NCBI GenBank assembly: GCA_945877185.1
Contig: CAMCRD010000001.1
Location: 9,256-73,255, forward strand
Length of the DNA stretch: 64,000 nt
Direction of reading: 5' to 3'
DNA from: Candidatus Finniella inopinata
GTDB lineage: Bacteria; Pseudomonadota; Alphaproteobacteria; Paracaedibacterales; VGCI01
The translations under genes and the position numbers were made by a program. This document shows, piece by piece, positions 1,395 through 42,956 of this stretch. Within the stretch, counting starts at the first letter, position 1, and each line of letters starts with the position of its first letter. The notes beneath the pieces were generated by a model that worked only from the letters and a program-made list of their open reading frames with translations, did no database searches and was not told where the DNA came from.

Positions 1395-2252
1395 TTAAAG
1401 TCCCAATTCTTCCAAAATCTTTTCTGCTTGAGCAGCCGTTACGCCCATATTGGCGTGAAGGTGGCTCGCCATTTCAGTATGGGTCGGGCTTATCCCTCCC
1501 TTACTCCGCTTTAACTCCATGACAAGCTCCCCTGCCCGAACGAGATGTCCTGAGTTTGGTTCCCATTCCGGTACTGGTACGACCGATGGCTGAATGACTG
1601 CTTGAGGAACTGCAGGCTGTGAAGCAGCAGCCGCTTGTTGTCGTCTCGCTGTTTCTTCTGCATGGGTGCGAAGAGACTCTTGAGTAGCTCGCTCAATTTG
1701 TCGCGCCTCTTCAGCGGCTCTTTCCTGGCGACGAGCTTCTTCACGCGCATGCGTCGCTAAAGAATTTTGTCTAGCCTGTTCAAGTTGACGCGCCTCTTCG
1801 GCGGCTCTTTCCTGACGACGCCTTTGTTCACTTGCTTGGGTGGCTAAAGAGTTTTGTCTCGCTTGTTCAAGTTGAGCGGCTTCCGTTGCCTGACGATTTA
1901 AGTCATCTTGACCACGATTATATCCTTTCTGCTGAACAGGCGGCAAAACATTCGCTTGTGCGCGATGAATATCCCTGCGTTGGGCTGGTGGATTTACCAG
2001 ATAGGGAGGGGAGGGTTGATTGGCAGAAGCCCTTTGAAAACGATTATTATTTTCAATAATTCTCTGCTGTTGCTCAGCCCTCTGTTGCTGTTCGATCTTG
2101 AGTTGTTCGATCTTGAGTTCTTCAATTTGAGCTTTCCTCACGGATTGTTCAAAGATTGACTCTTGCCTTTGATTCAGGGATGTGGGGCATCCCGTCACGA
2201 TGAGGGGCAATGGTAAAATCAACATGGCTTTCAAGATTTTTGAATACTGCAT
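1395..2252 (-). CDS. lipoprotein with charged 29-aa tandem repeats and a C-terminal domain shared with the neighbouring lipoprotein
   Basis: The N-terminus MQYSKILKAMLILPLPLIVTGC has a signal peptide plus lipobox (VTGC). It contains three EEARQLEQARQNSLAT..RRQERAA repeats. The C-terminal ~58 aa are paralogous to the C-terminus of ORF 2366..2824. Confidence 0.7.
   Translation of the reverse strand: MQYSKILKAMLILPLPLIVTGCPTSLNQRQESIFEQSVRKAQIEELKIEQLKIEQQQRAEQQQRIIENNNRFQRASANQPSPPYLVNPPAQRRDIHRAQANVLPPVQQKGYNRGQDDLNRQATEAAQLEQARQNSLATQASEQRRRQERAAEEARQLEQARQNSLATHAREEARRQERAAEEARQIERATQESLRTHAEETARRQQAAAASQPAVPQAVIQPSVVPVPEWEPNSGHLVRAGELVMELKRSKGGISPTHTEMASHLHANMGVTAAQAEKILEELGL
1626..1886. 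repeat. 3 x 87-bp in-frame tandem repeat inside the lipoprotein gene
   Basis: Residues 123-209 of the 285-aa product form three consecutive 29-aa units: TEAAQLEQARQNSLATQASEQRRRQERAA, EEARQLEQARQNSLATHAREEARRQERAA and EEARQIERATQESLRTHAEETARRQQAAA. The DNA similarity is visible directly. Confidence 0.8.
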
Positions 2253-2365: not shown

Positions 2366-2824
2366 TTAGAGTCCCAATTCTTCCAAGACCTTTTCTGCTT
2401 GAACAGCCGTTACGCCCATATTGGGAAAACGTTTCATGTTGGCTTGAAGGTATTGGGCCATTTCCTCATGGCTCGGGTTTATCCCATGCTTGCTCCTCTT
2501 CAATTCCATAACAAGGTCACCAGCGTAAACAAGGTGGCCTTCGGATGGAAACCAAGCAGGATCCATTTCCATCGGCGTACAATGGCCAGTGAACGACTGA
2601 GGCAATGCTGAAGAAGGAATAGCAGCAGGCTCTTGTGGGCACCCACAATCCTCAGAAGCTTTAGGTTTTGGTGCAACAGAGGGAGCACCCGTTGTCGCAG
2701 ATGGTGGAGCAACTACCGGAGGCGGAGGTGGTGCATAAAAATTATCCGAATCTTCACCAAAAAATCCATTACATCCTGCTAGAGTCAGAGGAAGAGCAAC
2801 GGCCAAAACTTTTGAAATACGCAT
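2366..2824 (-). CDS. small proline-rich lipoprotein sharing a C-terminal domain with ORF 1395..2252
   Basis: MRISKVLAVALPLTLAGC has a signal peptide plus lipobox (LAGC), followed by a PPPPPVVAPP linker. The C-terminus GHLVYAGDLVMELKRSKHGINPSHEEMAQYLQANM..GVTAVQAEKVLEELGL aligns with GHLVRAGELVMELKRSKGGISPTHTEMASHLHANMGVTAAQAEKILEELGL. Confidence 0.7.
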   Translation of the reverse strand: MRISKVLAVALPLTLAGCNGFFGEDSDNFYAPPPPPVVAPPSATTGAPSVAPKPKASEDCGCPQEPAAIPSSALPQSFTGHCTPMEMDPAWFPSEGHLVYAGDLVMELKRSKHGINPSHEEMAQYLQANMKRFPNMGVTAVQAEKVLEELGL

Positions 2825-6236: not shown

Positions 6237-7883
6237 ATGGCACAACCCTCTTTTTTAAAATCATTATTGGTAATGGGTCTTGTAATAGGAAATGCAGCTT
6301 TCTCCTATGGCATGGACTCCCCTGGTACAAAGGAACTTCGTACGCGGTTTTATCAAAAAAATGGCTTTATTCTTTCTGAACCGACTCTATTTACTGACGA
6401 AAGAGATTTCCCAGGAAATGATCCAGATCTTAAAGAGCTAAGCCGCACAACAATTCGGGATGGGCTCATTTATGACAGCAAAAATAATTTATTAGATACA
6501 GAAGGGGCCCCCTATATTTATGCCCTCAATCATGACGGAACGCTATACACAAGCTCACAATCTGGAGGAAAACACCACTCTTATTTCCTCAAATCAAAAC
6601 CTGAAAAAATGGGATATGGTATTGGGAAAAATGTCGCTTGTGCTGGCCACATTATAGCAAAACAAGGAAAAATTATCTCTATAGATAACAGTAGTGGACA
6701 TTATCTGCCTATAGAAGACCAGTTTAAAATTACCGTACAATTTCTACACAATAAAGGGGTTTTGGATCCAAACATCAGCCTTACGCTACGAGAACCAGAT
6801 TATGAAGGGGGAGGAAGCAAAAAAACTTCCCTAGAATCAATGATGGGTGAAAACATAGAAGCAATCCTTGCGCCCTATCCCATTGCAACCAAACGTACCC
6901 ATGAATACATAGAAGCCCAAAGAGAGAAAGAAAAAGCATTCCAATTAATAGTCGAACAATTGCAGCCTCATTGCGCCCAAGCATTCTTAAAAAAGCCCCT
7001 CACTGATTTATTTGCCAACTTTCACAGCCCTTCCTCAAAAGGAAAAGTTGATCTGGGAGAGATAACGTTAGAAAACAGGCAATGGAAAGCATTGCTAATC
7101 AATTATCATGGCGATTTACCAGATTCCATCATACAAGCACCGCCGACCGCATTTAGCTGGACGAATAGGGTAACCTCCGAGCCTTTAGTAACAAATATTC
7201 AAGAAGGCGTTGTAACACGCCATGCGACGTGTTCTTATTCAATTTTGCACACGCCCGAACCCCAAAAAATATTCGGCTTTTATTTAATTCCTATAGACGC
7301 GAATAATTTCAAAGAAAAAGAAAAAGAAAATCAAGAGCATAAGCCATTTAAAGAGGGAAATATAAGCCATTCCGTAAGCATGGATTCCCCCCACATGGCA
7401 GAGAGCTTCAAGAGCGGAAACACGAACCAAGAACACAGGCAGGTTAAAGATATTCATATAAAAAGCCCAGCAACTTTAGCAAATTTGAACCACCGTATTC
7501 CAGAAGAGATAAGGAAAAAAGACCCCGTTAAATCGCTTCATGCTTTGTACGCAGAATTAAAATCCCTCAATCCAGATGAAGCAAAAAAATATGAGAGAGA
7601 TGTTCAAGGGAATGATGTAAGCAATATAGCAATCTTCGCAAACATGTCCCACGATCTCACACAAACCTATAGTATTAAAATGTGGGCTCAGATAGAAGAA
7701 AACCCTGTTAAAGCGCTCCATGCCTTGTATGCGGAATTAGAATCTCTCAATCCAGATGAAGCAGCAAAATATGAGAGAGAAGTTCAAGGGAATGATGTAA
7801 GCAATATAGCAATCTTCGCAAACATGTCTCACGACATTATGCAAGCTCGTACTCTCATCATTTCAAGCTACTTTCCCTATTAA
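6237..7883 (+). CDS. secreted hypothetical protein with a duplicated ~46-aa C-terminal module
   Basis: N-terminal signal-like MAQPSFLKSLLVMGLVIGNAAFSYG. A conserved-looking block GGKHHSYFL...VACAGHIIAKQGKIISIDNSSGHYLP. Two near-identical C-terminal modules PVK(S/A)LHALYAEL(K/E)SLNPDEA.KYER.VQGNDVSNIAIFANMSHD. Confidence 0.7.
   Translation: MAQPSFLKSLLVMGLVIGNAAFSYGMDSPGTKELRTRFYQKNGFILSEPTLFTDERDFPGNDPDLKELSRTTIRDGLIYDSKNNLLDTEGAPYIYALNHDGTLYTSSQSGGKHHSYFLKSKPEKMGYGIGKNVACAGHIIAKQGKIISIDNSSGHYLPIEDQFKITVQFLHNKGVLDPNISLTLREPDYEGGGSKKTSLESMMGENIEAILAPYPIATKRTHEYIEAQREKEKAFQLIVEQLQPHCAQAFLKKPLTDLFANFHSPSSKGKVDLGEITLENRQWKALLINYHGDLPDSIIQAPPTAFSWTNRVTSEPLVTNIQEGVVTRHATCSYSILHTPEPQKIFGFYLIPIDANNFKEKEKENQEHKPFKEGNISHSVSMDSPHMAESFKSGNTNQEHRQVKDIHIKSPATLANLNHRIPEEIRKKDPVKSLHALYAELKSLNPDEAKKYERDVQGNDVSNIAIFANMSHDLTQTYSIKMWAQIEENPVKALHALYAELESLNPDEAAKYEREVQGNDVSNIAIFANMSHDIMQARTLIISSYFPY
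7521..7838. repeat. two ~138-bp direct repeats at 180-bp period (coding, within ORF 6237..7883)
   Basis: 7521..7658 and 7701..7838 are near-identical at DNA level (…gttaaa.cgct.catgc.ttgta.gc.gaatta.aatc.ctcaatccagatgaagca…gcaatatagcaatcttcgcaaacatgtc.cacga). Confidence 0.85.
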
Positions 7884-11961: not shown

Positions 11962-14610
11962 ATGCTTGAAAAAACATTTGATCCCCAATCTTTAGAAGGT
12001 GAAATTTATAAGGCTTGGGAAGCGTCTGGCGCCTTTTCTTGTAATCCTTCCTCTGTGAAGAAACCTTACACCATCATGATGCCCCCCCCGAACGTGACGG
12101 GTAGCCTTCATGTTGGCCACGCTTTGACTTATACCATCCAAGATATTCTCATTCGCTTTAAGCGCATGCAAGGGTTTGACGTTTTGTGGCAACCAGGGAC
12201 AGATCATGCAGGGATCGCAACCCAATTTGTCGTAGAACGTCAATTGGCGGAAAAGGGCATCACACGCCAAGATTTAGGTCGAGATGCTTTTATTGAGAAA
12301 GTTTGGGAGTGGAAGAAAGAATCTGGGGACATGATCGTCCGGCAACAACGCCGCCTTGGCATTTCTCCCGATTGGACACGCCAGAAATTCACCCTCGATG
12401 AGGGCTTGAGCCAAGCGGTTATGAAGGTTTTCGTGGCTCTTTACAAAGAGGGATTGATTTACAAGGATAAGCGCTTGGTCAATTGGGACCCAAAGTTGCA
12501 AACGGCCGTATCTGATCTGGAGGTCGTCTCTGAAGAAGCAAAGGGGCACCTGTGGTATATTCAATACCCCCTTGTTGACCAACCAGGTCACTTCATCACG
12601 GTCGCCACAACACGGCCTGAGACCATGCTCGGCGATGTTGCCGTTGCGGTTCATCCAGAAGATAGCCGTTATCAGCATCTCATTGGGAAGCATGTCCAGT
12701 TGCCCCTAACCGACCGGACAATTCCTATTGTGGGTGATGACTATTGCGACCCCGAAAAAGGCAGTGGCGCGGTTAAGATTACCCCTGGCCATGATTTCAA
12801 TGACTTTGACGTTGGCCGTCGGCATGGCCTTCCCCTTCTGAATATTCTGGATAAAAGCGCCTGCATGAATGAAAATGTGCCCCTCGACTATCAAGGGCTA
12901 TCCATTGAAAAAGCCCGCGCCCAAGTTCTGGCTGATTTAGAAGAAGCGGGGCTTGTGGAGAAAATCGAGCCCATTGTAAACGCCGTTCCCTATGGGGAAA
13001 AGTCAGGTGTGCAAATTCAACCCTGGCTCACCGACCAGTGGTTTGTGGATGCAAAAACCTTGGCGATTCCCGCCATTAAAGCTGTAGAGGATGGGCGCAC
13101 ACGCTTTCTGCCCGAGCATTCCAATGCCACTTATTTCGAATGGCTGCGCAATATCCAACCGTGGTGTATCTCACGCCAAATCTGGTGGGGGCACCAGGTT
13201 CCTGTTTGGTATGGGTCGGATGGCCATGCGTTTGTTGAGGAAACCGAAGAGGCAGCCCAACTTGCAGCCGTCAGCTATTATGGAGAAGCCGCTGACCTCA
13301 TCCGTGATACAGACGTTCTGGACACCTGGTTTTCCTCGGCTCTTTGGCCCTTTTCAACCTTGGGATGGCCGCAAGAAACCGTTGAATTGAAGCGCTATTA
13401 TCCAACAGACGTTTTGGATACAGGCTTTGATATTATTTTCTTCTGGGTTGCCCGCATGATGATGATGGGCCTTCATTTTACAAAAGAAGTTCCCTTTAAA
13501 ACTGTCTATATCCACGGGATGGTGCGCGATGAAAAAGGCTCCAAAATGTCCAAAACAAAGGGAAATGTTATTGATCCTTTGATTTACATGGATAAGTTTG
13601 GCACCGATGCTTTACGCTTTACCCTGTCTTCCTTGGCTGTGCCGGGACGGGATCTGAAATTAGGCGAATCCCGCATTGAGAGCGGGCGCAACTTCATGAC
13701 GAAGATCTGGAATGCAGCCCGATTCTTGCAAATGAATGAATGTGCTTATAGCGAAGACTTTAATCCAAAAACTTGCCAACATACCGTCAATCAATGGATT
13801 GTAGGGCAAACGGCCCTCCTCACCGCTCAAGTTGTAGAAGCACTGGATTCCTACCGATTTGATGAAGCTGCCAGCCATATTTATCAATTCCTCTGGGGAA
13901 CCTACTGCGACTACTATCTGGAATTCCTGAAGCCCATTTTTAAGGATGAGGATTTAGCAACCGAAGCACGCCAAACAGCCGCGTGGGGATTTGTACAAGT
14001 CTTGAAAATTGCCCATCCCTTTATTCCCTTTATTACAGAAGTTCTTTGGAAAGAATTTACAGACAGTCAAAAGGGGTTACTCATAAGCCAACCTTGGCCT
14101 GAACCTCAGACAGAGGCTATCGATCCAACAGCGCGCCAAGAAATGGATTGGATTGTGCAAGTCATTGATGGTATTCGATCCCGTCGTGCAGAATTCAACG
14201 TTCCCCCCGGCTCTCTTTTGCCCATGCACGTTTATGAAGCAACGCCAGAGATTCAAGCCCGCCTCGCCCGTCATGAGGCCATTATCATCCGTCTGGGGCG
14301 CATTGAGGCGATTCACCCTTTTTCAGAAAAGCCACCCATGATGAAAGAGGCTGCTCTCTTTATTGTGGACCAAACACCGATCGCTTTGCCTTTGAGCGGC
14401 AGTATTGATATTCCAGCTGAAATCAAACGCCTTGACCAAGAGCTCGTGAAATTGACGCAAGAAATGGACAGCTGTAATGCTCGCCTCTCCAACGCTGATT
14501 TTATGGCAAGAGCCAAGAGCGAAATCATTGAGGAAATGCAAGAACGCCTCGAAGCCTTTGGCGCCCGAAAAGCGAAAATCGAAGAAGCGCTATCGCGCTT
14601 GCAGAGTTAA
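11962..14610 (+). CDS. valS: valine--tRNA ligase
   Basis: PPPNVTGSLHVGHAL (HIGH), KMSKTKGN (KMSKS), a C-terminal coiled coil, and 882 aa. Confidence 0.95.
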   Translation: MLEKTFDPQSLEGEIYKAWEASGAFSCNPSSVKKPYTIMMPPPNVTGSLHVGHALTYTIQDILIRFKRMQGFDVLWQPGTDHAGIATQFVVERQLAEKGITRQDLGRDAFIEKVWEWKKESGDMIVRQQRRLGISPDWTRQKFTLDEGLSQAVMKVFVALYKEGLIYKDKRLVNWDPKLQTAVSDLEVVSEEAKGHLWYIQYPLVDQPGHFITVATTRPETMLGDVAVAVHPEDSRYQHLIGKHVQLPLTDRTIPIVGDDYCDPEKGSGAVKITPGHDFNDFDVGRRHGLPLLNILDKSACMNENVPLDYQGLSIEKARAQVLADLEEAGLVEKIEPIVNAVPYGEKSGVQIQPWLTDQWFVDAKTLAIPAIKAVEDGRTRFLPEHSNATYFEWLRNIQPWCISRQIWWGHQVPVWYGSDGHAFVEETEEAAQLAAVSYYGEAADLIRDTDVLDTWFSSALWPFSTLGWPQETVELKRYYPTDVLDTGFDIIFFWVARMMMMGLHFTKEVPFKTVYIHGMVRDEKGSKMSKTKGNVIDPLIYMDKFGTDALRFTLSSLAVPGRDLKLGESRIESGRNFMTKIWNAARFLQMNECAYSEDFNPKTCQHTVNQWIVGQTALLTAQVVEALDSYRFDEAASHIYQFLWGTYCDYYLEFLKPIFKDEDLATEARQTAAWGFVQVLKIAHPFIPFITEVLWKEFTDSQKGLLISQPWPEPQTEAIDPTARQEMDWIVQVIDGIRSRRAEFNVPPGSLLPMHVYEATPEIQARLARHEAIIIRLGRIEAIHPFSEKPPMMKEAALFIVDQTPIALPLSGSIDIPAEIKRLDQELVKLTQEMDSCNARLSNADFMARAKSEIIEEMQERLEAFGARKAKIEEALSRLQS

Positions 14611-14663
14611 TGACTTTGGAAACCCAAGTTAAAACACAAGTATCACTAAATATCAATAGGTTA

Positions 14664-14812
14664 CGTCATTGCGAGGACTGCGAGCGAAGCGTGGCAGAAC
14701 GCGGCAATCTATGTATTTTTAAATATTTCAACGCAATATAATACTGGAAGAGGCTTTGAATACATGGATTGCCGCGTCCTGCCACGCTTCGCTCACAGTC
14801 CTCGCAATGACG
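14664..14812. repeat. MITE-like palindromic element, copy 1
   Basis: The left arm cgtcattgcgaggactgcgagcgaagcgtggcagaacgcggcaatc and the reverse complement of the right arm gattgccgcgtcctgccacgcttcgctcacagtcctcgcaatgacg differ at 2 of 46 positions. An AT-rich loop of ~57 bp separates them. The site is intergenic, after valS. A second copy lies at 41737..41874. Confidence 0.85.
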
Positions 14813-14903
14813 GAATAATTCGTTGATTTTAAAATATTATTTATTGGTGTTCAGTTAAAATCTAATCCATAACTTGGGTTGTTAATATATCTATGAGTAA
14901 CAA

Positions 14904-20485: not shown

Positions 20486-20541
20486 TTTGCCAATTACCCT
20501 TAAATGTGATACACCATTAATAACATACTGACGAAAGACCC

Positions 20542-21798: not shown

Positions 21799-21813
21799 CC
21801 CAAGCATTTAAAA

Positions 21814-21842
21814 TAAAAAAACCCCTGAAAAGGGGTTTTTTA
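21814..21842. terminator. bidirectional rho-independent terminator between tyrS and ctrA
   Basis: aaaaaaa-acccct-gaaa-aggggt-tttttt is a perfect 6-bp GC-rich stem with a GAAA loop, an A-run upstream and a T-run downstream. It lies between convergent genes. Confidence 0.75.
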
Positions 21843-21860
21843 CAATTCATAAGTTAAAAC

Positions 21861-22637
21861 CTACCCAAAGCGTGGGGCTGGTTTTGCTATTTCTCTCTCC
21901 GGACCCTTTTTTGCCATAGAGCCCACAAGGGAGGCATGTTCAGTAGCGGCCTTTTCTTCTGGGGTCAACTCCCGCAAGACATACCCACGACCCCAAACTG
22001 TTTCAATGTAGTCTTCACCGGACAAGGCTTCTGCAAGTTTACGGCGCAATTTGCAAATAAACACATCAATAATCTTCAATTCAGGCTCGTCCATGCCACC
22101 ATAGAGGTGGTTTAAGAACATTTCTTTGGTAAGGGTTGTCCCTTTACGTAAAGAGAGAAGCTCAATAATAGCATATTCTTTACCTGTTAAATGAAGGGGC
22201 TTATTATCAACGCTCGCGGTGCGATGTTGCAAGTTCACGCTCAACCGGCCAGTGCGGATAATGGATTCAGAATGGCCGCGGGAGCGGCGGATAATGGCAT
22301 GAATGCGCGCCAACAATTCAGTCTTATTAAAAGGCTTCGTTAAATAATCGTCTGCCCCAAACCCAAGGCCACGGACCTTATCGTCAATTTCGGCTAACCC
22401 TGACAAAATCAGGATGGGAGTTTTGATGTGTGCGGCCCGCAAACGACGCAAGACTTCGTACCCATCCATATCCGGCAAGACAAGGTCAAGAACGATCAGA
22501 TCATATTCATAGAGCTTGCCAATTTCCAGGCCGTCTTCACCAAGGTCTGTTGTATCGCAAACGAAGCCTTCAGAACGAAGCATGCTTTGTAGTGTCTTTG
22601 CCGTTGCAGAATCATCTTCAATGAGTAGTACGCGCAT
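21861..22637 (-). CDS. ctrA: cell-cycle response regulator CtrA (OmpR family)
   Basis: [15 protein letters not shown].., [14 protein letters not shown], and the near-invariant CtrA block [64 protein letters not shown]. It carries a ~25-aa C-terminal extension. Confidence 0.9.
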
Positions 22638-22959
22638 TACAAAACCTCCAAATAGTTGATCTGTTAAGTTGATCGTAACAAATAATTTTTAAGATAACTA
22701 ACAGAATATTTTTATTTTTTTCTAGATATTTTAACGATTTGTTTACAAATGTTGTGAGTCGACTTCTGGCGTCTCTTAATGATCAGCAATTAAGGAAAAC
22801 TTTTGCGACCACCCCCCTCCCGAACAAAAACCCTGAATATAATGAATTAGCTATTCCTTAATGATTTTAGGGATAAGCTTATTTTTAGTTAGAGCCATGA
22901 TGATTTTCAATAGAACTGGGGCCTTTTATAAAAGGTCTAAAGTAATAGGAAACTTTATT

Positions 22960-24099
22960 ATGGGTAAATATCCTGCCATTTTGGCCTTATTATCACTCGT
23001 CCTTGCTCAACCATCCTTGAGCAGTTCGACATTAAGCACAACAGGAACTACTCCTTCCCATACCCAATCCGAGAAAGATCTTTGGAAATCCCACTCAGAT
23101 CAAAAGAGTGAATTAAATCGAGATATTGTGTTATTTATCAATACCTTATTTCCCGATGAATCTGAGGTAAAAAAGCTTAATTTAGATGATAATACCCAAA
23201 AATTAGAAAAAGAACGACGCGATTTCTTAAAGCGACTCTTTATCATATTGGCTGAAGGACCTTTAAAGATGTCTAAGGAAAAAGTTCAAACAAAACAAGT
23301 TATGGGGACATGGGGTTACCCATTAGCAACAGCCTTGGGCCATGGGCAACGGATCCTTATAGAAGCAGAAGGGATAAGTGGGAAATCTCTCCTCAATTTG
23401 GTATTGACGGGAATCATGAAAGTTGAACCACCAGCCACGAAGCCTTCAGAAGCTTTTGATTTTAAAGCTAAAGTCGGGGATTCAAACATTGCAACCTATC
23501 GCAGGTTTGCCTCCCATGGCTTGGTCTTTAAAAATAATATTGTGGAAGAAACAAAGCTTGATGGACTGACCGGTAAATTACAAAATGCAGCGATTGGCAA
23601 TGCAGGAAGGCACATTGGCGTGAATATCACGTTTGGGGGGCTTGGGCATGAAGATATCGATGGCAATATAATTGGGCCTGGCGGAACAACATGGGAGAAA
23701 TCAAAACCCCTCCCGAAAAGACAACATGGCCATGTCTATCTTCAATATTTAGATTATGGAAATAATCGGAGTACTCTTATGTTTGGATTAGAATCCAATG
23801 AACCGTTAACAGAAAATATGTTTGGTGTTAAGCATAACGCAAAAAGTGGAACTAAAGTCGCCTCAGAAGGCATATCCGTCACCGGTGGGCAGAAGATGCA
23901 AGTTTTCTTAGGCAAAGAAGCACCGGCTGAATATGGGGGCATGCGTGTTCATTTGGATTCTGGACAAGTGAAAGAACTCGAGTCCTTGTTTCAAAATATC
24001 CTAGCCATGGATGAGACAAAACAAAAGGAATTATTTGAAAAAATCTTAAAGGGAACAGGGCCAGAAGCTCATGCCACCCTTCCAAAATTAAATGGTTAG
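22960..24099 (+). CDS. secreted hypothetical protein (AT-rich accessory gene)
   Basis: The ATG at 22960 is preceded by aggaaac and gives MGKYPAILALLSLVLAQPSLSSS (signal peptide). No recognisable family. A Gly/His-rich central block (FGGLGHEDIDGNIIGPGG…QHGHVYLQYLDYGNN) is present. The upstream 33 codons in the ORF track are rejected. Confidence 0.65.
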   Translation: MGKYPAILALLSLVLAQPSLSSSTLSTTGTTPSHTQSEKDLWKSHSDQKSELNRDIVLFINTLFPDESEVKKLNLDDNTQKLEKERRDFLKRLFIILAEGPLKMSKEKVQTKQVMGTWGYPLATALGHGQRILIEAEGISGKSLLNLVLTGIMKVEPPATKPSEAFDFKAKVGDSNIATYRRFASHGLVFKNNIVEETKLDGLTGKLQNAAIGNAGRHIGVNITFGGLGHEDIDGNIIGPGGTTWEKSKPLPKRQHGHVYLQYLDYGNNRSTLMFGLESNEPLTENMFGVKHNAKSGTKVASEGISVTGGQKMQVFLGKEAPAEYGGMRVHLDSGQVKELESLFQNILAMDETKQKELFEKILKGTGPEAHATLPKLNG

Positions 24100-24145
24100 A
24101 GCTTGTCTGGTAAAACGGCCTCTTCTGTGACTTATTGAAAAAACA

Positions 24146-24267
24146 CCTCAATCCAAATCTGCCAAAAGGGTCGCATTACCTCCAGCGGCAGTTGTATCTT
24201 GGCTGAAGGTTCGCTCCACCATAAAACGGGCAAGATAGTTGGGGCCACCAGCTTTCGGGCCTGTTCC
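24146..24267. repeat. direct repeat, left copy (orphan duplicate of the putA 3' end)
   Basis: These 122 bp align without gaps to 27302..27423, with about six mismatches and the same orientation. Confidence 0.9.
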
Positions 24268-24306
24268 CCCTGGCTGAACCAACTCGGTTATATTACTCCT
24301 CTTCAT
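24148..24306 (-). pseudogene. orphan putA 3'-terminal fragment (52-codon ORF)
   Basis: The minus-strand translation is MKRSNITELVQPGGTGPKAGGPNYLARFMVERTFSQDTTAAGGNATLLADLD*. Its last ~40 residues match the PutA C-terminus ..GTGPKAGGPNYLVRFMVERTFSQDTTAAGGNATLLADLD*. Confidence 0.75.
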
Positions 24307-24377
24307 AGCGTATCATCCTTTCTTTATTGAGGGTTATGGCAGTTCGTCACTGCCACGATACGCTGCTTTATCTTCCA

Positions 24378-25721
24378 TCACCAAATATCTCCTGGGATGC
24401 AGGACATATCCACACTCAAATTTTCTTTTCTTGATTCAAAATAAGCAAGTGCCTCATCGAATTTATGACGTTTTTTCACAGGTAATTCAGTGTCATTAAA
24501 ATTATTAGAATTATTTATTCCAGTGTGATCTTTATAGTAAATACTTAATTTTTCAAGCGTAGTGTTGTTTTTTAGATGTTTGTGAAATGCTATCGCTGCA
24601 TCGATTACATTTAATCTATTGTGGCACTGTACACTAATAGAGCGGAGGGTTTTATTTTCTTTTAAGCATTTTGCTATATTTTTTGACGCTATTTTATGGC
24701 TACAAAGTGGATTTTCTAACGTTAAAGAAGTTATACAATTATTTTTCTCCAAACCTCTTCCTAATTCGCCGTAAACATGAACAACTCCAAGCTGATCATA
24801 CTCCGTATCCTCTCGCACCAGAACTGATTCAAATACATTGTTTATTTTAATCATCTTTCTTAAATAAGAAAATTTATTAGGATCATTCCCCATAGTTTGA
24901 AGCTCAAAAATTAATTTTATTTTTTTAGATTTTATTTCGTTTAATCTTTTATATTGTTTCAATTTATCATAACTATCCCAAATACCAATTGTTATACATT
25001 CAAGGTTTGGAAGTTTATTAATATAATATATTTCATCATTATTGATTTTTTGTAAAACAAAATTGGTGATTTTAGAATTTAATATATTGCTAAAATGTTG
25101 GCAAACGCTACCCCATTCTCTAAACTCCGACTCACCACGATAAACTTGATCAAATATTTTATTCATAACATCGTATGGAATCATTCTAATATTACAATGA
25201 TTAACAGTTTTAATCATTTCTTCTGCTTTAAGATGCCCCTCTTGAATTGCTTTTTGATAATATTCCATAGCAGTGGGTATCCAATCTCCCCCTTTTTTTT
25301 GGTAGATGGCGCCTAATTTAAAGTACGCCTCGGGCAATCCGATTGTACCAAAAACGACGTTAATATTGCTTATAGCTCCAGCATGTCCTTGGTTCGCAGC
25401 TAGATCATACCATTTGAGCGCTTTAGAGAAGTTCTGCTGGACTCCGTATCCATTTCCATACGCAGCACCAATAGTATTTTGTGCATCTGCATTTCCATCA
25501 TAAGCGCTGTCTTTGGTATCGTTAAACCATTTTTGAAACTCTACATTTTCTGCTGGTTCTGTTGTGTCAATTCTTTGGCGTTTCTCTAGCCTGTCATCTT
25601 GACTTGGGGACCCTGGGCGTTTCAGAGGGTTATGGTTGTTTGTTTCGTCTTCCGCCCCATGACAAGGGAGGAGTAAAATAGAACACAAAAGTGCCGTTAC
25701 TGTACTTCTTATCGTCATCAT
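24378..25721 (-). CDS. eukaryote-like repeat protein: signal peptide, Sel1 repeats, F-box-like motif, RNI-type leucine-rich repeats
   Basis: Signal-like MMTIRSTVTALLCSILLLPCHGA. Sel1 pattern DGNADAQNTIGAAYGNGYGVQQNFSKALKWYDLAANQGHAGA. F-box-like IPYDVMNKIFDQV….WGSVCQHFSNIL. LRR-like NNCITSLTLEN…LKENKTLRSISVQ…LKNNTTLEKLSIYY. Strongly AT-rich. The Sel1 call is firm, while the F-box and LRR calls are pattern-based. Confidence 0.7.
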   Translation of the reverse strand: MMTIRSTVTALLCSILLLPCHGAEDETNNHNPLKRPGSPSQDDRLEKRQRIDTTEPAENVEFQKWFNDTKDSAYDGNADAQNTIGAAYGNGYGVQQNFSKALKWYDLAANQGHAGAISNINVVFGTIGLPEAYFKLGAIYQKKGGDWIPTAMEYYQKAIQEGHLKAEEMIKTVNHCNIRMIPYDVMNKIFDQVYRGESEFREWGSVCQHFSNILNSKITNFVLQKINNDEIYYINKLPNLECITIGIWDSYDKLKQYKRLNEIKSKKIKLIFELQTMGNDPNKFSYLRKMIKINNVFESVLVREDTEYDQLGVVHVYGELGRGLEKNNCITSLTLENPLCSHKIASKNIAKCLKENKTLRSISVQCHNRLNVIDAAIAFHKHLKNNTTLEKLSIYYKDHTGINNSNNFNDTELPVKKRHKFDEALAYFESRKENLSVDMSCIPGDIW

Positions 25722-26152
25722 TAATCTCCAATTTTAAATTTATAGTGTTCTTTAATTTTAATTAGGTTTTTGCAACAGAGCCGTTGAAAAATCCAAATCT
25801 ATTTAGATGTGATTTGTGGTTTGTTTTTGCGTTTATTCCTGGGTTTTATTTCGAAATCTTTCAATGGCTACTTCATTGTTTGAAGCTGCAATACTTCACC
25901 TAAACTCTTTATTGATCAGGTAAATACTTCTATCAGTATTAAACTTAATTATTCAAACCACTAATTTGATATATAAAACCGCGGAACGCAATACGGTAAG
26001 AATACCCCATTGGCCCTGTTTTAGGATCGACATTCATTTTAAAGGAAGTACAAACTTTCGAATAATAAAAACAAAAAAACTTAATTTAAAGAACAGAAGA
26101 AAAATAGAGTAATAAATAAAGAAATTGGAGGCTAAGTAGAAAAAATGGTTGA

Positions 26153-26284
26153 TATTACACGGCGTCCTTATTTTTCCTATGGCCATGCCGTACTGTTGAG
26201 CGCTACCTCAACGACATAAAAGGAAAGTTTGACGCGAAAAACCGCGCTCATCTTATCTCGACGCTCCTAAAACACATTCAATAG
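26153..26284 (+). pseudogene. remnant of a LuxR/GerE-type HTH regulator (3' end only)
   Basis: A stop-to-stop frame reads YYTASLFFLWPCRTVERYLNDIKGKFDAKNRAHLISTLLKHIQ*. The RTVE.YL..I..K....NR..L pattern is the recognition helix and C-terminus of GerE-type HTH domains. It has no start codon and no N-terminal domain. Confidence 0.45.
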
Positions 26285-26377
26285 AGTATTTTTACCCCCC
26301 TATACAAAGCCATTAGGGAGAGCTATATAAAATGAGATCATTGAGTAAAATAACTTAACATAAAAGCGAGAGAAGTC

Positions 26378-27238
26378 ATGTTGAAAAAATATTTGTTCAT
26401 CCTATTATTTGCATTTTCCATTTTACCACCAACTCAAGCTATGCAAGAGCCAGAACGCCCCTGGCCAGAGATGACTTATAGCGATAAAACTGGCGCAAAA
26501 TGTCGCTTGGTTTCTTTAAGAGAGGTAACTGAAAAAACCTTCGTTCCGTTTGCCACCACACTTTTTTCAACACAAGGCGTGTATGAACTTTATGAAAATG
26601 GTATTGCCTGGGATGAAGCAAGAGCCCAACGTCTTTGGGGTCGTGTCTCACCAAGAACAGAAGAATGGTTCAAAGGTATCAACACATTCGTGCCTTGGAC
26701 GGTTATTCAAGTATGCGAAACGGAAACATTCATTGGTATTTTGGGGGCACATTTTCATACAAATGAAAAGATAAATGAATATAAAAGTGTTGAAATTTGT
26801 TATGCGCTTCACCCTGAGTACAGAGGAAAAGGAATTTTATCAACTGGATTTAGGACTTTTGCTCAAGCCTTTGCGCCTCAATTGCAAGGACTAGGAGATC
26901 AATTTGATCGCATTTTGGCCCCGATTTCTCCTATTAATTTTCCTTCTTTGAAATTTGTCTTTAGCCTAGGATTTAAAGTGGGTGAGGATTCACGAAACCA
27001 ACCCTATGTGTCTAGTTTTTTTCCAGAAAATTACATAAGTGAAGAGAATAAACCACGATTTTTAGGTTATGCTGTGGAGGTTGTCAAAAAACTTCAATCA
27101 ACTTCTGAAATGGTTGAACCAAATCCGAACAGCTTTGAAATGCCTATTGATGAACAAGATTGGGCGAAACTTCTTGCTCTTAGAATCGTTGCCATCATGC
27201 CAAAGGATGCTTTTTTCGAGAAATTCCTGGAAAAATAG
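26378..27238 (+). CDS. GNAT-family N-acetyltransferase with an N-terminal signal peptide
   Basis: MLKKYLFILLFAFSILPPTQA (signal peptide). GNAT motif-A-like VEICYALHPEYRGKGILSTGFRTFAQAF (RimJ/RimL-like pattern). Confidence 0.65.
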   Translation: MLKKYLFILLFAFSILPPTQAMQEPERPWPEMTYSDKTGAKCRLVSLREVTEKTFVPFATTLFSTQGVYELYENGIAWDEARAQRLWGRVSPRTEEWFKGINTFVPWTVIQVCETETFIGILGAHFHTNEKINEYKSVEICYALHPEYRGKGILSTGFRTFAQAFAPQLQGLGDQFDRILAPISPINFPSLKFVFSLGFKVGEDSRNQPYVSSFFPENYISEENKPRFLGYAVEVVKKLQSTSEMVEPNPNSFEMPIDEQDWAKLLALRIVAIMPKDAFFEKFLEK

Positions 27239-27301
27239 TATTGTCATACCTCTCCCTTTGACCACCTTTGTTGTGTGAAGAGGGAGGGGAACAAAAATAT
27301 T

Positions 27302-27423
27302 CCTCAATCCAAATCTGCCAAGAGGGTGGCATTGCCTCCAGCGGCGGTTGTATCTTGGCTGAAGGTTCGCTCCACCATAAAACGGACAAGATAGTTGGGT
27401 CCACCAGCTTTCGGGCCTGTTCC
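27302..27423. repeat. direct repeat, right copy (functional putA 3' end)
   Basis: Partner of 24146..24267. It comprises the stop codon and last ~40 codons of putA. Confidence 0.9.
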
Positions 27424-30400
27424 CGAAAGGCCTTCGCCCCCAAATGGTTGAACACCGACGACAGCGCCGATCATGCTTCGATTGATGTACAAATTTCCAA
27501 CGCGGGCCCTCTTTCGAACACGCTGTATAGTCCCGTCTATGCGGCTATGCACCCCAAGCGTAAGGCCATAGCCTGTGGCGTTAATCTCATCAATGACTTT
27601 ATCTAAATCTGATCCTTTAAAGCGAACGACATGCAGAATGGGCCCAAAAACTTCTTCCGTCATTTGCTGGGCAGATGATAGCTCCCAAGCTTGCGGCGGC
27701 ACAAAATTGCCTTGCTGATGGGTCTTATCTAATTCTGAACGATAAATCAATCGAGCGGTTTTCTCTAATGCCTTCCCATAGGCTTCCAGCTGTTTTTCTG
27801 CCTCATGATCAATAACGGGGCCAACGTCTGTCGATAGCAGGCTCGGGGCCCCAACAGATAATTCGGCCATCGCCCCTTCGAGCATTGCCAAGATGTTATC
27901 CGCAATTTCTTCTTGGATGAAAAGCAACCGTAAGGCCGAGCAACGCTGCCCTGCACTTTGAAAGGAAGAGACGATAATATCCTGGATCACTTGCTCCGGC
28001 AAAGCGGATGAGTCCACGATCATTGCATTCATTCCCCCTGTTTCCGCGATGATCGGAACAATCGGCGCTTTTTCTCGTGAAAGAAGGGTTTTGGCAATGC
28101 CTTGGGCCACGGATGTTGAGCCTGTGAAGGCAACACCTGCCGTCCGTGGATCACGCATCAGCTGTGACCCTAATACACTTCCCCTTCCCGGAAGATAATG
28201 GAGGACACTAACGGGGATTCCAGCTTGATGGGCCAATTGAACAGCTCGATAGGCAATCAACGGTGTCTGATGGGCGGGCTTTGCCATAACGCAATTCCCT
28301 GCAGCCAAGGCTGCCGCTACTTGACCTATAAAGATCGCTAAAGGGAAATTCCACGGGCTAATGCAAACAAACACGCCTCGCCCATGAAGGCTCAATTGGT
28401 TCTTCTCGCCGGTTGGCCCAGGTAAAGGTAACGGTGCACTCATGAGGCGACGCGCCTCAGAGGCATAATACCGACAAAAGTCAGCCGCTTCACGCACTTC
28501 TGAAATCGCATCCGGGAGCGTTTTCCCCCCCTCATAGACCAACAATGTCATTAACTCTTCACGATTCGTTTCTAATAATGCCGCCAATCGATCCAAAGCT
28601 TGAGCACGAACAGCCACCGGGGTGGCAGTCCACTCTTCAAAGGCTTCTCCTGCCAAGGTCATTGCCCGTTCTGCATCTTTTGCCGTTGCATTCCAAACTT
28701 GGCCAATGACTTGCTCATTATTCGACGGATTAACGGCCTGGGCGGAATTGCCTTGACGAATAGGGGTTCCGGAAATGAGGGGAGTAGAACACCACGGAGC
28801 CCCTGAGGGCATCGTTACCTTAGTGGCTTCCATTTTTTGCTTTAAACCATCGATCTCCTCTAAATTACTGAAATCGATTCCTTCAGAGTTTTGGCGTTGA
28901 GGACGTAATAAATTCCGAGGCAAAGGAATTTTTGGATGAGGAATGCTCTTAAAAGATCGTGCTTCCTCCACAGGATCCGCGATCAAAACATCAATGGGCA
29001 TAGAAGGATCATAAATTTTATGGACAAAAGACGTATTCGCCCCATTCTCGAGCAAACGGCGAACCAGATACGCCAACAAATCCCGATATTCTCCAACAGG
29101 CGCATAGACACGACAAGGAACTGGACGATCATTTCCCTTTACGAGCTGACCATAAAGCGCTTCCCCCATCCCATGCAACCGCTGAAATTCAAATTCTTTA
29201 CTCTCTCCCGCAAGGTCAAGTATGGTCGCCACCGTGCGGGCGTTATGAGTTGCAAATTGGGGGTATATGGCCTCAGGGACTGCAAACATCTTTTGCGCAC
29301 ACACTTGATAAGAAACATCCGTGAACACTTTGCGGGTAAAAACAGAATAGCCCTTCAGTCCCTTTTCTTGAGTGCGCTTGATCTCTGAATCCCAATACGC
29401 TCCTTTCACCAAGCGAATGCATAATCGACGCCCGTGACGCTTGGCCATGTCAATGAGATAATCCATGAACAAGGGGGCCCGTTTCTGATATGCTTGGACA
29501 GCCAGCCCAAAACCATTCCACCCTTTTAAATCTTCATGACCAGAAATAAATTCAATAATATCCAAAGAAAGATCGAGCCGCTCTGACTCTTCTGCATCAA
29601 TCGTAAGGCCAATGCCGTGCTCTTTGGCAAGCAAGGCCAAATTCAAAACCAAAGGCCTTAATTCTTCTTCAATCCGTTCTCGTTTTGCAAGCTCATAACG
29701 GGGATGAAGCGCGGACAGCTTAACGGAAATACTATTTTGGAAAAAGATATCACCTCCCCCTTTTGATTTCCCGATCGCTTCAATGGCTTGGGTATAGGCC
29801 TGATAATAACGATTGGCATCTTTTTTGGTACGGGCCTCTTCCCCCAACATATCGTAAGAATGTCGATATCCTTTTTCTTCATCCGTTTTCGCGCGCTTTA
29901 AAGCGGCCTTGATCGTCTCCCCCATCACGAATTGATTGCCCATAATTTCCATAGCCTTAGCAATACTCTGTCGAATAACGGGTTCGCTTACCCGGCGGGT
30001 TATCCCCTTCAACGTATCCAGAAAACCGTTTTTCTCTAATCCCCAATGCATCAAATGATCGGCCGTTGACAATCCAAAGCTGGTGAGTTTTGCAAAGAAA
30101 GTCGTATCCCCTTTCCCTTGATTTAAGGAGCTTCCCCATTCAACGGAACGAATCTTGTCCCGAATCAGCCTTGTTTTCGTTTCCGTATCCGGCACGCGCA
30201 ATAAGGCTTCGGCCAAGCACATCAAAGCAATGCCTTCTTGGCTATTCAAGTCATAGGTTTGAAGAAAGTTTTCAATGCTGAAACTATCCAGCTTCTGCGC
30301 CCTCACACCTTCAACAAGTCGGCGTGCCTGTTCAGCGATGCGTTTCAATTGTTCCGGTGTTTGGTGAATATGGTCCAGAAGATAAGCCACAACGTCCGCT

Positions 30401-30534
30401 TCATCTTTTCGGTAAAAGTCATTGAAAGAGGGGAGAACACAGGAGCTAAGGACAGGATTAAGAACAGAGTTAGAAGTCTCCTCACTTGTCAAAGCTTTAC
30501 GCTTCATCTTAAGTTTCATACCATTTCTCCGCAC
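27304..30534 (-). CDS. putA: bifunctional proline dehydrogenase / 1-pyrroline-5-carboxylate dehydrogenase
   Basis: The 1076-aa product has an N-terminal proline dehydrogenase half and a C-terminal aldehyde dehydrogenase half (FTGST, ETGGMNAMIVD, SAGQRCSALR with the catalytic Cys). The start may be one of several N-terminal Met codons. Confidence 0.95.
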   Translation of the reverse strand: MRRNGMKLKMKRKALTSEETSNSVLNPVLSSCVLPSFNDFYRKDEADVVAYLLDHIHQTPEQLKRIAEQARRLVEGVRAQKLDSFSIENFLQTYDLNSQEGIALMCLAEALLRVPDTETKTRLIRDKIRSVEWGSSLNQGKGDTTFFAKLTSFGLSTADHLMHWGLEKNGFLDTLKGITRRVSEPVIRQSIAKAMEIMGNQFVMGETIKAALKRAKTDEEKGYRHSYDMLGEEARTKKDANRYYQAYTQAIEAIGKSKGGGDIFFQNSISVKLSALHPRYELAKRERIEEELRPLVLNLALLAKEHGIGLTIDAEESERLDLSLDIIEFISGHEDLKGWNGFGLAVQAYQKRAPLFMDYLIDMAKRHGRRLCIRLVKGAYWDSEIKRTQEKGLKGYSVFTRKVFTDVSYQVCAQKMFAVPEAIYPQFATHNARTVATILDLAGESKEFEFQRLHGMGEALYGQLVKGNDRPVPCRVYAPVGEYRDLLAYLVRRLLENGANTSFVHKIYDPSMPIDVLIADPVEEARSFKSIPHPKIPLPRNLLRPQRQNSEGIDFSNLEEIDGLKQKMEATKVTMPSGAPWCSTPLISGTPIRQGNSAQAVNPSNNEQVIGQVWNATAKDAERAMTLAGEAFEEWTATPVAVRAQALDRLAALLETNREELMTLLVYEGGKTLPDAISEVREAADFCRYYASEARRLMSAPLPLPGPTGEKNQLSLHGRGVFVCISPWNFPLAIFIGQVAAALAAGNCVMAKPAHQTPLIAYRAVQLAHQAGIPVSVLHYLPGRGSVLGSQLMRDPRTAGVAFTGSTSVAQGIAKTLLSREKAPIVPIIAETGGMNAMIVDSSALPEQVIQDIIVSSFQSAGQRCSALRLLFIQEEIADNILAMLEGAMAELSVGAPSLLSTDVGPVIDHEAEKQLEAYGKALEKTARLIYRSELDKTHQQGNFVPPQAWELSSAQQMTEEVFGPILHVVRFKGSDLDKVIDEINATGYGLTLGVHSRIDGTIQRVRKRARVGNLYINRSMIGAVVGVQPFGGEGLSGTGPKAGGPNYLVRFMVERTFSQDTTAAGGNATLLADLD

Positions 30535-40447: not shown

Positions 40448-41648
40448 ATGCCTCGTTATTTTTTACCCCTTTTAATTTTGTCCCTCATTGCTTGCTGCAT
40501 TGAGGTTGATATTTCTGTGCCCAGCTTTCCAGATATGGGGCGCTATTTTCATGTGGAAGATGGCATCATCCAAATGACCATTGCCTACAATTTTTTAGGG
40601 TTTTGCTTGGGTGCCGCTGTATATGGCCCCTTATCGGATGTCTATGGTCGTCGACCCATCATGGTTTGGGGAAATGCGATTTTGGCCATTGGGGCTGTGG
40701 GTTGTGTGATCGCCCCCTCCATATCCTTCCTGCTTGGAACGCGGCTCATTCAAGGCATTGGGGCATCTGCATCCGCCGTGGTGGTTTTTGCAATGATTGC
40801 AGATGCTTATCCCGAAAAAGATAAAGCAGCGAAATTAATTGGCGCCATGAATGGTGTTTTCACCACCATAATGGCAGCAGCCCCCATAGTGGGCGGTTTT
40901 ATCAATGAAGCGGTTGGGTGGCGGGGAAATTACGGGATCGTTGCCCTGATTTGTATCGTGTCTTGGGTTTTCTTGTCTTTCTTCCTGCCGGAAACAAAAA
41001 GAACTTTCGAGTCTTTTCACTTAAGCAAAATTAAGAAGGGCTACCAACAACTTCTCACCAGCATACCATTTATCAGCGCTTCCGTCGTTCCAAGCTTAAG
41101 TTATGCGTGTTATCTTTCTTATTACCCAAGCCCCTTTTCTTTACACGGAAACATATGAGTTAACCTTAATGGGCTATGTCCTCCATCAATGCGTCATTAT
41201 CTCTGTCTTTTCGATTATCAGCCTCTTCTCAGGCCCTATCATTCAAAAGCTGGGCGCCAGAGACTGCATTACAAAAGGAGTTTCTCTTTCAGGATTGAGC
41301 GCCTTGGGGATGGTTCTGGTTGGCCTCCTTGCACCAAAATCCCCTTACCTCATGACGTTCTTTATGAGCCTTGGGGGGTTAGGCGCGGCGGTTTCTTACC
41401 CTGTTATCTTTGCAGGATCCTTAGAAATTTTCCCCGATATCAAGGGCGCAGCATCCTCTGTGATTATGAGCATGCGATCTTTCTTGTGCTTTGCTTTTGT
41501 CGCTCTCACAAGTTATTTGTATAATGGCAACCCATTGCGAATAGCCCTCATTGTACTGGGAGGAAACATAATCTGCCTATTTCTTACACCTAACCTATTG
41601 CGGCATGAGCCATTTTCTGGGGTTACTTCTCCTCAAAACGCTTCTTAA
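40448..41648 (+). pseudogene. MFS transporter (Bcr/CflA-like) interrupted by a frameshift near 41100..41110
   Basis: ORF 40448..41158 carries TM1-6 (GPLSDVYGRRP, LIQGIGASA). ORF 41103..41648, in the next frame, carries the second six-helix half (..FLITQAPFLYTETYEL..). The junction reads SLSYA|(t)|VIFLITQAPFLY, consistent with a 1-nt indel. A sequencing error cannot be excluded. Confidence 0.6.
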
Positions 41649-41874: not shown

Positions 41875-41918
41875 TGAATTTTTCTAAATGAAGAATAGCA
41901 TTTTAAGGACATAATTTT

Positions 41919-42956
41919 ATGAGTCAGGCCTTGCAAAATTGGAAAGAAGAAATCAATCAGTGCGACTCTTTAAAAGCGTTGGAGGATGTGCGCGTTCGCC
42001 TCTTGGGAAAGTCCGGCGAGATTACGCAAATGCTCAAAACCTTAGGGGCATTGGATGCGGAACTTCGGCGGGAAAAGGGGCTTGAGATTAATCAACTGAA
42101 AGAAGCGGTTTATCTATCGTTAGAAGAGAAACGCGCGCATCTCACAACACACGCGCTTGAAGATAAACTCACAGCCGAAGCTGTTGACGTTACCCTGTCC
42201 ATCCGCCCTGAATCGATTGGCACCCTTCATCCCATTACCCGCACCATTGAGGAGATCACAAGCTATTTTGCCAAAGCTGGATTTTCTGTGGCGGAAGGCT
42301 CGGATATTGAGGATGAAGAACATAATTTCAATGCCTTGAACATCCCAGAGCATCACCCTGCCCGTCAATCTATTGATACGTTTTATTTGAATGCAGAGAA
42401 AATGTTGCTTCGCACACATACCTCTTCGGTTCAGATTCGCACCATGAAGACAACCCCTCCCCCTATTCGTATCTTGTCGCTGGGGCGCGTGTATCGGTCA
42501 GAATCTGATGCAACCCATACGCCCATGTTCCATCAAGTGGAAGGACTGGTCATCGATAAAGATATTCATATGGGACACTTGAAGAGCACGATTACCGATT
42601 TCTTGCGTCATTATTTTGGTATTGCGGACTTGCCTATGCGCTTTCGTCCCAGCTTTTTCCCCTTCACAGAACCTTCTGCGGAAGTCGATATCGGCTGCTC
42701 CCGTGAAGGAGGCGCCTTAAAAATAGGATCTGGTAAGGACTGGCTAGAGATTTTAGGGTGTGGCATGGTTCACCCCAAGGTTCTCACCAATTGCGGGATT
42801 AACCCTGATATATACCAAGGTTTTGCTTTTGGCATGGGCCTTGACCGCCTCAGCATGCTCAAATACGGTCTGCCAGATCTTCGACCCTTCTTCGAGAGTG
42901 ATGCCCGATGGCTAAAACACTACGGATTTTCTCCTTATCTATCAGCAGGACTATAA
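41919..42956 (+). CDS. pheS: phenylalanine--tRNA ligase alpha subunit
   Basis: HPARQSIDTFY, FRPSFFPFTEPSAEVD, and GFAFGMGLDRL. Confidence 0.95.
   Translation: MSQALQNWKEEINQCDSLKALEDVRVRLLGKSGEITQMLKTLGALDAELRREKGLEINQLKEAVYLSLEEKRAHLTTHALEDKLTAEAVDVTLSIRPESIGTLHPITRTIEEITSYFAKAGFSVAEGSDIEDEEHNFNALNIPEHHPARQSIDTFYLNAEKMLLRTHTSSVQIRTMKTTPPPIRILSLGRVYRSESDATHTPMFHQVEGLVIDKDIHMGHLKSTITDFLRHYFGIADLPMRFRPSFFPFTEPSAEVDIGCSREGGALKIGSGKDWLEILGCGMVHPKVLTNCGINPDIYQGFAFGMGLDRLSMLKYGLPDLRPFFESDARWLKHYGFSPYLSAGL

Follow-up and report, generated by a model that had tools for sequence, protein, structure and literature searches.

The stretch of DNA analysed here (the window: 64,000 nt of Candidatus Finniella inopinata, GenBank assembly GCA_945877185.1, contig CAMCRD010000001.1, positions 9,256 to 73,255) contains an intact putA gene whose 3' end is present a second time, as an orphan, on the far side of a short islet of AT-rich genes. 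The gene (27304..30534, minus strand) encodes a bifunctional proline dehydrogenase/Δ1-pyrroline-5-carboxylate dehydrogenase with the Pfam domains PRODH, Pro_dh, and Aldedh, and homologues of the protein were found at 55% to 100% identity. An insertion brought in ~3.0 kb of cargo along with a substitute putA end and thereby moved the original end, together with its native flank, 3.16 kb downstream.

Results

The two copies of the putA end are direct repeats of 123 nt, both on the minus strand, which align without gaps at 117 of 123 positions (95.1%). The orphan, R1, occupies 24146..24268, and the functional end, R2, which comprises the last 41 codons of putA, the stop codon, and GG, occupies 27302..27424. 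They differ at 24166, 24172, 24178, 24190, 24230, and 24244, and the longest exact run they share is one of 39 nt (24191-24229 in R1, 27347-27385 in R2). Both boundaries are sharp: the outer homology ends 2 nt past the putA stop (stop+2), and beyond the inner boundary there is no homology when compared with shuffled sequences (p = 0.84 and 0.36). A looser extension by the repeat finder covers 131 nt at 93%, and a candidate extra homology upstream of the orphan (RS.I...VQP.GG) was rejected, being no better than shuffles. The original prediction, which had described a 122-bp duplicate in shared orientation with about six differences, is thus borne out at a measured length of 123 nt. That the segment might be a dispersed repeat, which would have spoken against the prediction, is not the case, as the window holds two copies and no further ones, and the 123-nt query had no matches in shuffled versions of the window.

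The orphan is a non-functional putA end. It forms the tail of a fortuitous open reading frame (ORF) of 52 aa (24148..24306, minus strand), the last 40 residues of which equal those of PutA except for one V→A change (39/40). The prediction had given the same length of 52 codons and an ending (GGNATLLADLD) identical to the PutA C terminus.

Between the repeats lies the inserted cargo (24269..27301; 3033 nt), which is not found in the relatives L084, L086, and L097. Its AT-richness, asserted at first from inspection, was upheld by a comparison with the flanks: GC content is 0.356 and GC content at third codon positions (GC3) is 0.27-0.30 in the islet, versus 0.47-0.50 and 0.45-0.50, respectively, in the flanking core genes. 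The cargo comprises a gene for a secreted Sel1-repeat protein (24378..25721, minus strand; Pfam Sel1), the remnant of a LuxR/GerE-type regulator retaining the C-terminal helix-turn-helix (~26189..26284, plus strand), and a GNAT acetyltransferase gene (26378..27238, plus strand; Acetyltransf_3, E = 1e-9) convergent with putA, whose product has an N terminus that is signal-peptide-like by inspection. The Sel1 and GNAT assignments of the original prediction were confirmed and that of the LuxR remnant weakly so (E = 0.02 to positions 32-55 of the 57-position GerE profile), while the F-box-like and leucine-rich repeat (LRR) parts assigned to the Sel1 protein went undetected by Pfam. Structure prediction was tried as a test for F-box or LRR folds and abandoned, as the AlphaFold model was too poor to use (predicted local distance difference test score, 44) and shows only C-terminal beta-alpha repeats.

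No full-length homologue of the Sel1 protein was found; relatives match its N-terminal repeats only, and the C-terminal two thirds match nothing. Residues ~350-400, in the C-terminal part, have a match to Imm47 (immunity protein 47) at E = 0.0035-0.008, below the Pfam cutoff. The Sel1 gene is convergent with a gene encoding an Ntox11 toxin domain (described below), which together with the subthreshold Imm47 match may be chance. Homologues of the GNAT protein occur in relatives at 46-64% identity near radA or between def and coaE, which are ordinary chromosomal sites, and no integrases or orphan gene ends were found beside them. The cargo ends have no similarity to the spacers that relatives carry at the same position. 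The predicted hairpin nested in an 8-bp inverted repeat (24307..24364, minus strand) lies directly downstream of the Sel1 gene and forms when 24269-24380 is folded to minimum energy (z = -2.6; -27.1 kcal/mol for the fold as a whole); it is probably a terminator-like structure of that gene.

Close relatives were found by protein search plus exact look-ups. A scan of a genome collection with the C-terminal 399 aa of PutA yielded, among the matches listed, identities of 61-66% and no close relatives. Four relatives allow the sequence downstream of putA to be compared: L083 (PutA identity, 84%), L084 (82%), L086 (82%), and the sister L097 (96%; ERR14064715), in which the putA stop is followed by GGTGTCCTTTTCAATAAAATAGCGCAGAG, GGTGTTTTTTCCAAGGAAATAG, GATGTCCTTTTCAAGAAAATAGCGCAGAG, and GGTGTTTTTTCA, respectively. 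Read in the direction of putA, the sequence that comes after the orphan is TGAGGTGTTTTTTCAATAAGTCACAGAAGAG, and this flank (TGAGGTGTTTTTTCAATAAG...) resembles the putA downstream flank of all four. Over 24116..24145 (minus strand; GGTGTTTTTTCAATAAGTCACAGAAGAG...), 20-23 positions are identical to those of the four relatives in gapped alignments (32 nt versus 34 nt), compared with 10-19 for the flank of the functional end. The functional copy, R2, runs into GGAATATTTTTGTTCCCCTCCC (27256-27301 side), which matches the flank of none of the four. Because the relatives' putA flank follows the orphan and not the functional end, R1 is the resident putA end, and R2 came in with the cargo. The native flank at the orphan, recognised in four relatives, supports the predicted geometry of an insertion that restores its target gene; a native flank after the distal copy is expected under both site-specific integration and recombinational displacement of the 3' end.

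The insertion lies in a region that varies between relatives. To the right of putA, the closest relatives have a conserved neighbour, a ctrA-type response regulator gene (21861..22637, minus strand), which forms the other edge of this region. In L086, which is a genus-level relative only, the putA-ctrA site is empty: putA is followed by a 290-nt spacer and then by ctrA, tyrS, and anmK, the same right-hand genes as at 19424-22637 in the window. The empty site that the prediction had proposed to look for was therefore found, with putA directly beside ctrA. L084 carries three unrelated genes between the two (putA|336 aa|Rrf2|AOX|ctrA), the 336-aa one having been considered as an Ntox11 relative and found to be unrelated, and in L097 yet a different convergent gene starts 9 nt past the stop codon of putA. 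Since the cargo differs from relative to relative, the putA-ctrA spacer is a recurrent insertion hotspot.

The window itself has a further insertion in this spacer (22758..24131, plus strand), which carries a gene for a secreted protein with an Ntox11 ("novel toxin 11") domain (22861..24099, plus strand; Pfam E = 1e-14; GC 0.40). The alignment of the window to L086 and L084 breaks off at 22757 and resumes at ~24132, so the Ntox11 gene represents a second, separate insertion. No immunity-like gene was recognised adjoining it. The variable region had been taken to be limited to the ~3.1-kb islet, which is too narrow: the whole putA-ctrA spacer, 22758-27301, is inserted AT-rich DNA that arrived in at least two events, with the orphan in its middle. 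Three independent assemblies of relatives (L083, L094, and L096) end 112-342 nt past the putA stop, which hints at strain heterogeneity or repeats at the hotspot in other lineages.

The substitution pattern bears on where the imported end came from. Relative to L097, R1 and R2 have eight derived states in common and are therefore sister sequences. Five of the six differences between them fall at third codon positions, and the sixth is the V→A change in the orphan. An excess of this size has a probability of 0.018 if changes are spread evenly over codon positions and of 0.08 under in situ duplication with a neutral orphan, and is suggestive, not conclusive. Third-position divergence between R1 and R2 (5/40) is close to that between the window and L097 in the body of putA (~4/40 per 120 nt). 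The best reading of these data is that R2 derives from a closely related strain, where it would have belonged to a functional putA, and that the orphan is of recent date.

A second signal concerns a longer stretch of the gene. Between the window and L097, third-position differences number 2-10 per 40 sites over 2160 nt of the putA gene body; the last 240 nt (27304-27543 versus 3063-3302 in L097), where the proteins are identical, have 18/40 and 11/40. In all, 29/80 third positions differ there versus 75/720 elsewhere (~4-fold; Fisher p = 1.3e-8), and control pairs have no such rise at the putA end. Judged by this contrast, a recombination tract longer than the 123-nt repeat appears to end inside putA in at least one of the two lineages. 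Exchange at the hotspot is accompanied by homologous tracts ending within putA. Polarisation of the six R1/R2 differences and of the -240 tract with outgroups was tried and dropped, as sites were too few or too saturated to assign.

The window contains a single further match, C' (24051..24078, plus strand), to the initial 19-28 nt of the repeat (GGGAACAGGCCCGAAAGCTGGTGGCCCC); it is inverted and lies 68 nt from the outer end of the orphan, within the native 3' end of the Ntox11 gene. Identity is 21/28, or 16/19 over the first 19 nt, and the similarity begins at the same base as the repeat boundary. Chance matches of this kind are expected at 0.005-0.01 per window; no nonhomologous one was found in 1.66 Mb of other loci, and none in relatives. 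The two segments can pair as a stem (24051-24078 with 24241-24268) whose base, 24051:24268, directly adjoins the start of the cargo at 24269. The stem has 9 perfect pairs, its first 19 positions comprise 16 Watson-Crick pairs and one G-T wobble by inspection, and it lies within the minimum-energy DNA fold. The C-terminal Ntox11 tail that holds C' is conserved across the Ntox11 family (x-x-G-P-x-A...), and C' is therefore native Ntox11 coding sequence that resembles putA by coding chance. The idea that C' belongs to a longer inverted putA fragment, or to a third and older orphan, was rejected on this ground and because the extension was not significant.

No gene for a recombinase was found. The statement that no integrase or excisionase remains was substantiated by Pfam: neither these nor a transposase domain, nor any remnant of them, was detected in the 3 large ORFs of the islet or the 30 ORFs of the window in total, and a six-frame scan of the 656-nt spacer of the islet for an integrase remnant was empty. 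No tRNA or other RNA genes were found, and the cargo ends lack terminal inverted repeats. Nor is there the signature of a transposon, with its transposase, its terminal inverted repeats, and a short duplication of the target; the repeat is 123 nt long, and its differences are mainly synonymous.

Searches for other instances gave similar results. No second putA 3' copy was found among the ~90 putA loci examined, and no detached putA end on phage or plasmid records or on IMG/VR contigs. The sole match of the islet DNA to plasmids and phages was putA itself, the IMG/VR candidates for an element-borne putA end proved to be putA genes that are full-length or cut by the contig end, and L106, an IMG/VR contig that starts in a putA end, has no integrase. 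A metagenome search with a DNA pattern for the putA end of this lineage gave 0 matches.

Contigs assembled independently (Logan, run ERR3719157) reproduce both junctions and the copy-specific single-nucleotide polymorphisms (SNPs). The k = 31 graph alone does not decide how the parts are paired, as contigs L081 and L082 each end within the exact core of 39 nt (24191-24229), after 30 nt of it. L081 is 3177 nt long, that is, one repeat period (3156) plus 21, and an integrated insert fits the k = 31 graph just as well as an empty site plus a 3156-nt circle does. The integrated topology rests on the longer k-mers or reads of the original assembler.

Elsewhere in the window, an intergenic palindromic element of ~155 nt (14661-14815), 80% self-complementary, lies downstream of the ORF at 11962..14610, and a partial copy of it (41819-41879; 54-61 nt, 88% identity, both orientations) lies upstream of the ORF at 41919..42956; the element looks like a miniature inverted-repeat transposable element. 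Internal tandem or dispersed repeats of 79-89% identity (7507-7834 and 1395-2540) sit in low-GC ORFs without a Pfam match (6237..7883; 1395..2252 and 2366..2824), which look like repeat-containing secreted or lipoprotein-like accessory genes. A major facilitator superfamily transporter gene (40448-41648, plus strand) is apparently split into the overlapping ORFs 40448..41158 and 41103..41648 and may be a frameshifted pseudogene or reflect a sequencing error.

Discussion

Our preferred, if tentative, explanation of the putA locus is homologous recombination inside putA on one side of the incoming DNA combined with an illegitimate join on the other. A stretch from a closely related strain would have entered the putA-ctrA hotspot, bringing a putA end (at least 41 codons plus the stop) followed by the GNAT gene, the LuxR remnant, and the Sel1 gene. 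On the gene-body side, it would have been joined by ordinary homologous recombination within putA; on the far side, an illegitimate join would have linked its nonhomologous end with recipient DNA 121 nt short of the putA stop, at the foot of a recipient stem in which GGGAACAGGCCCGAAAGCT in putA pairs with a near-complement in the convergent Ntox11 gene. Such an event would need no site-specific recombinase and may have been retained by selection, since putA stayed intact. What displacement of a 3' end should leave, a same-orientation orphan fragment downstream of an intact gene with no recombinase, is what is present, and homology-facilitated illegitimate recombination was put forward to explain orphaned 3' regions in type VI secretion system (T6SS) and rhs loci (PMC5361080). 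The position of the cargo junction at the stem base is suggestive of a structure-guided join: a boundary fixed by an element's att site would not be expected at a stem specific to the recipient, and an illegitimate join or break at a hairpin base would be.

Several observations weigh against this explanation. Homology-facilitated illegitimate recombination is rare in experiments (PMC5361080), and the donor arrangement it supposes, putA with a GNAT gene from stop+2 onward, was seen in no genome. The homologous crossover upstream of R2 is not locatable without a conspecific genome, and the tract of high divergence from L097, which starts at about -240, is not assignable to either lineage. The coincidence with the inverted repeat was spotted after the fact, and the 241-nt region as a whole does not fold with unusual stability (z = -1.3). 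Lastly, a boundary at stop+2 together with synonymous-biased differences is the pattern of the integrase-made e14/icd pair of Escherichia coli, so the models are not discriminated by it; a functional allele imported by any process gives the same pattern, which is thus compatible with an integrase and no proof of one.

The original prediction had read the repeats as attL and attR. We regard it as the main rival explanation, possible though less likely, that the islet is a decayed site-specific element or satellite, whose attP would have contained the last 41 codons of putA and whose tyrosine or serine integrase was lost or acted in trans. The locus would then be a cis-mobilizable element (CIME) with R2 as attL and R1 as attR, and GGGAACAGGCCCGAAAGC would be the sequence on which a recombinase acted. 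The geometry and the substitution pattern match those measured for e14, both repeat boundaries are sharp, and the first 24 nt of the repeat, identical in R1 and R2, could hold a crossover core. The LuxR remnant indicates that deletions have occurred in the cargo, and CIMEs that lack integration genes and keep attL and attR are documented (PMC5704250). An empty site in a relative, foreign DNA between direct repeats of a gene's 3' end, and native flank at the distal copy were likewise all found.

An integrase and recurrence were not. No integrase, excisionase, or remnant was detected in the islet or the 30 window ORFs, there is no tRNA gene, and no second instance came to light in the collections searched, whether as another putA 3' orphan in the ~90 putA loci or as an element-borne putA 3' fragment in IMG/VR; on this count, the searches returned no evidence for site-specific integration. 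The cargo consists of accessory genes typical of the lineage, with GNAT homologues at chromosomal sites that are not att sites. An att boundary is not expected to coincide exactly with the base of a stem in which the host Ntox11 gene takes part, and the replaced or divergent tract relative to L097 starts at about -240, elsewhere than the R1/R2 boundary. The remark that such integration is unusual at an enzyme gene was overstated, as insertion at the 3' ends of protein-coding genes is well known, for example at icd (e14) and at trmE (Salmonella genomic island 1 [SGI1]; PMC8409611).

A bolder account is doubtful in our view: that the 3' end of putA is an unrecorded attachment site for a 3.0-kb integrase-less micro-island, mobilised in trans and bearing eukaryote-like effectors, or that foreign DNA was captured in a hairpin-directed manner. 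If the micro-island existed, it would represent a means of delivering eukaryote-like effector genes in an uncultured, symbiont-like alphaproteobacterium. If hairpin-directed capture were true, chance inverted repeats between convergent gene ends would offer a general, recombinase-free route by which effectors are gained beside core genes.

RecA could also have produced the arrangement by a Campbell insertion, in which a fragment from a related strain, consisting of the 123-nt putA end and the cargo, was circularised by end joining and entered by a single crossover in the 123-nt homology. This would yield direct repeats flanking the cargo without an integrase, the homology (123 nt; 95% identity; exact run of 39 nt) is long enough for RecA, and a 3156-nt circle would fit the Logan graph. 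We nonetheless consider it improbable, as it requires an ad hoc circular intermediate and makes the inner boundary the circularisation joint of the donor, so that its coincidence with a recipient-specific inverted repeat goes unexplained.

Very little speaks for an origin in situ, by local duplication or by a very long target-site duplication from staggered cuts, after which the orphan would have decayed neutrally. R1 and R2 are each other's closest relatives, as such an origin would have it, and the staggered-cut model too puts the native flank after the distal copy. Plain tandem duplication would put it after both copies, which is not seen, and staggered cuts find no transposase or terminal inverted repeats to go with them; a target duplication of 123 nt lies far outside the known ranges. 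Third codon positions hold five of the six differences (p = 0.08 under in situ duplication), and the orphan has just one change at codon positions 1 and 2, both of which count against this origin. Equally hard to credit is an assembly artefact, in which the contig of the metagenome-assembled genome (MAG) would join two coexisting forms, an uninterrupted putA and a separate molecule or strain with the cargo, across the core where L081 and L082 end and where the graph alone permits either pairing: the junction 24268/24269 is spanned by an independent contig with orphan-type SNPs, which makes a partial putA end beside the cargo real either way, and reads or k-mers of >41 nt resolve the core, through which the 75-kb MAG contig runs.

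Whichever process was at work, the putA locus is a small and well-resolved record of how accessory genes, here secreted and eukaryote-like ones, join a core neighbourhood while the adjacent enzyme gene remains intact, in a lineage known from metagenomes only. The orphan end both dates and orients the insertion. For annotation, a short ORF that ends like PutA is best read as a pseudogene fragment, and duplication of a target gene's 3' end is by itself no proof of integrase-mediated integration.

Among known systems, e14 in the icd gene of E. coli is arranged in the same way as the putA locus: the insert carries a substitute 3' end, the enzyme gene is intact, and the original end (icdC) is orphaned at the far side. 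Measured around e14 in E. coli K-12, the icd/icdC repeat is 165 nt long and 92.7% identical, with 11/12 differences at third positions and homology to stop+1, compared with 123 nt, 95.1%, 5/6, and stop+2 for the putA pair. Phage 21 also integrates in the 3' end of icd. The two loci differ in that e14 is a prophage of 15 kb that carries intE and xisE, whereas the putA insert is 3.0 kb long with no recombination or phage genes found, and in that the inner boundary at putA coincides with a host-specific inverted repeat.

CIMEs, which are decayed integrative and conjugative element (ICE) or integrative and mobilizable element (IME) remnants that retain attL and attR at a target gene's 3' end, are identified through the att sites they have in common with cognate ICEs or IMEs of related strains; for putA, no cognate element, integrase, or second instance was found. 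Islands at the 5' end of dusA (PMC4482086) and SGI1 at the 3' end of trmE (PMC8409611) resemble the putA insert in that a new end for the gene comes with the island and semiconserved direct repeats are left behind. They differ from it in having short att repeats (~21 bp) and always a dedicated integrase, and in recurring at the same site in hundreds of genomes.

The rhs, contact-dependent inhibition (CDI), and T6SS effector loci are like the putA locus in that incoming DNA is anchored by homology in the gene body and the resident 3' end is orphaned downstream, with no integrase (PMC5361080). In those loci, the toxin encoded by the new end differs from that of the old one and the exchange serves diversification, whereas the two putA ends encode the same tail (39/40 residues) and the payload is the cargo downstream. 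Gene-end-restoring insertions and orphaned gene ends are thus already well known from icd/e14, dusA islands, trmE/SGI1, and rhs and T6SS arrays; what appears to be new here is putA as the gene concerned and the uncultured alphaproteobacterial lineage in which it is found.

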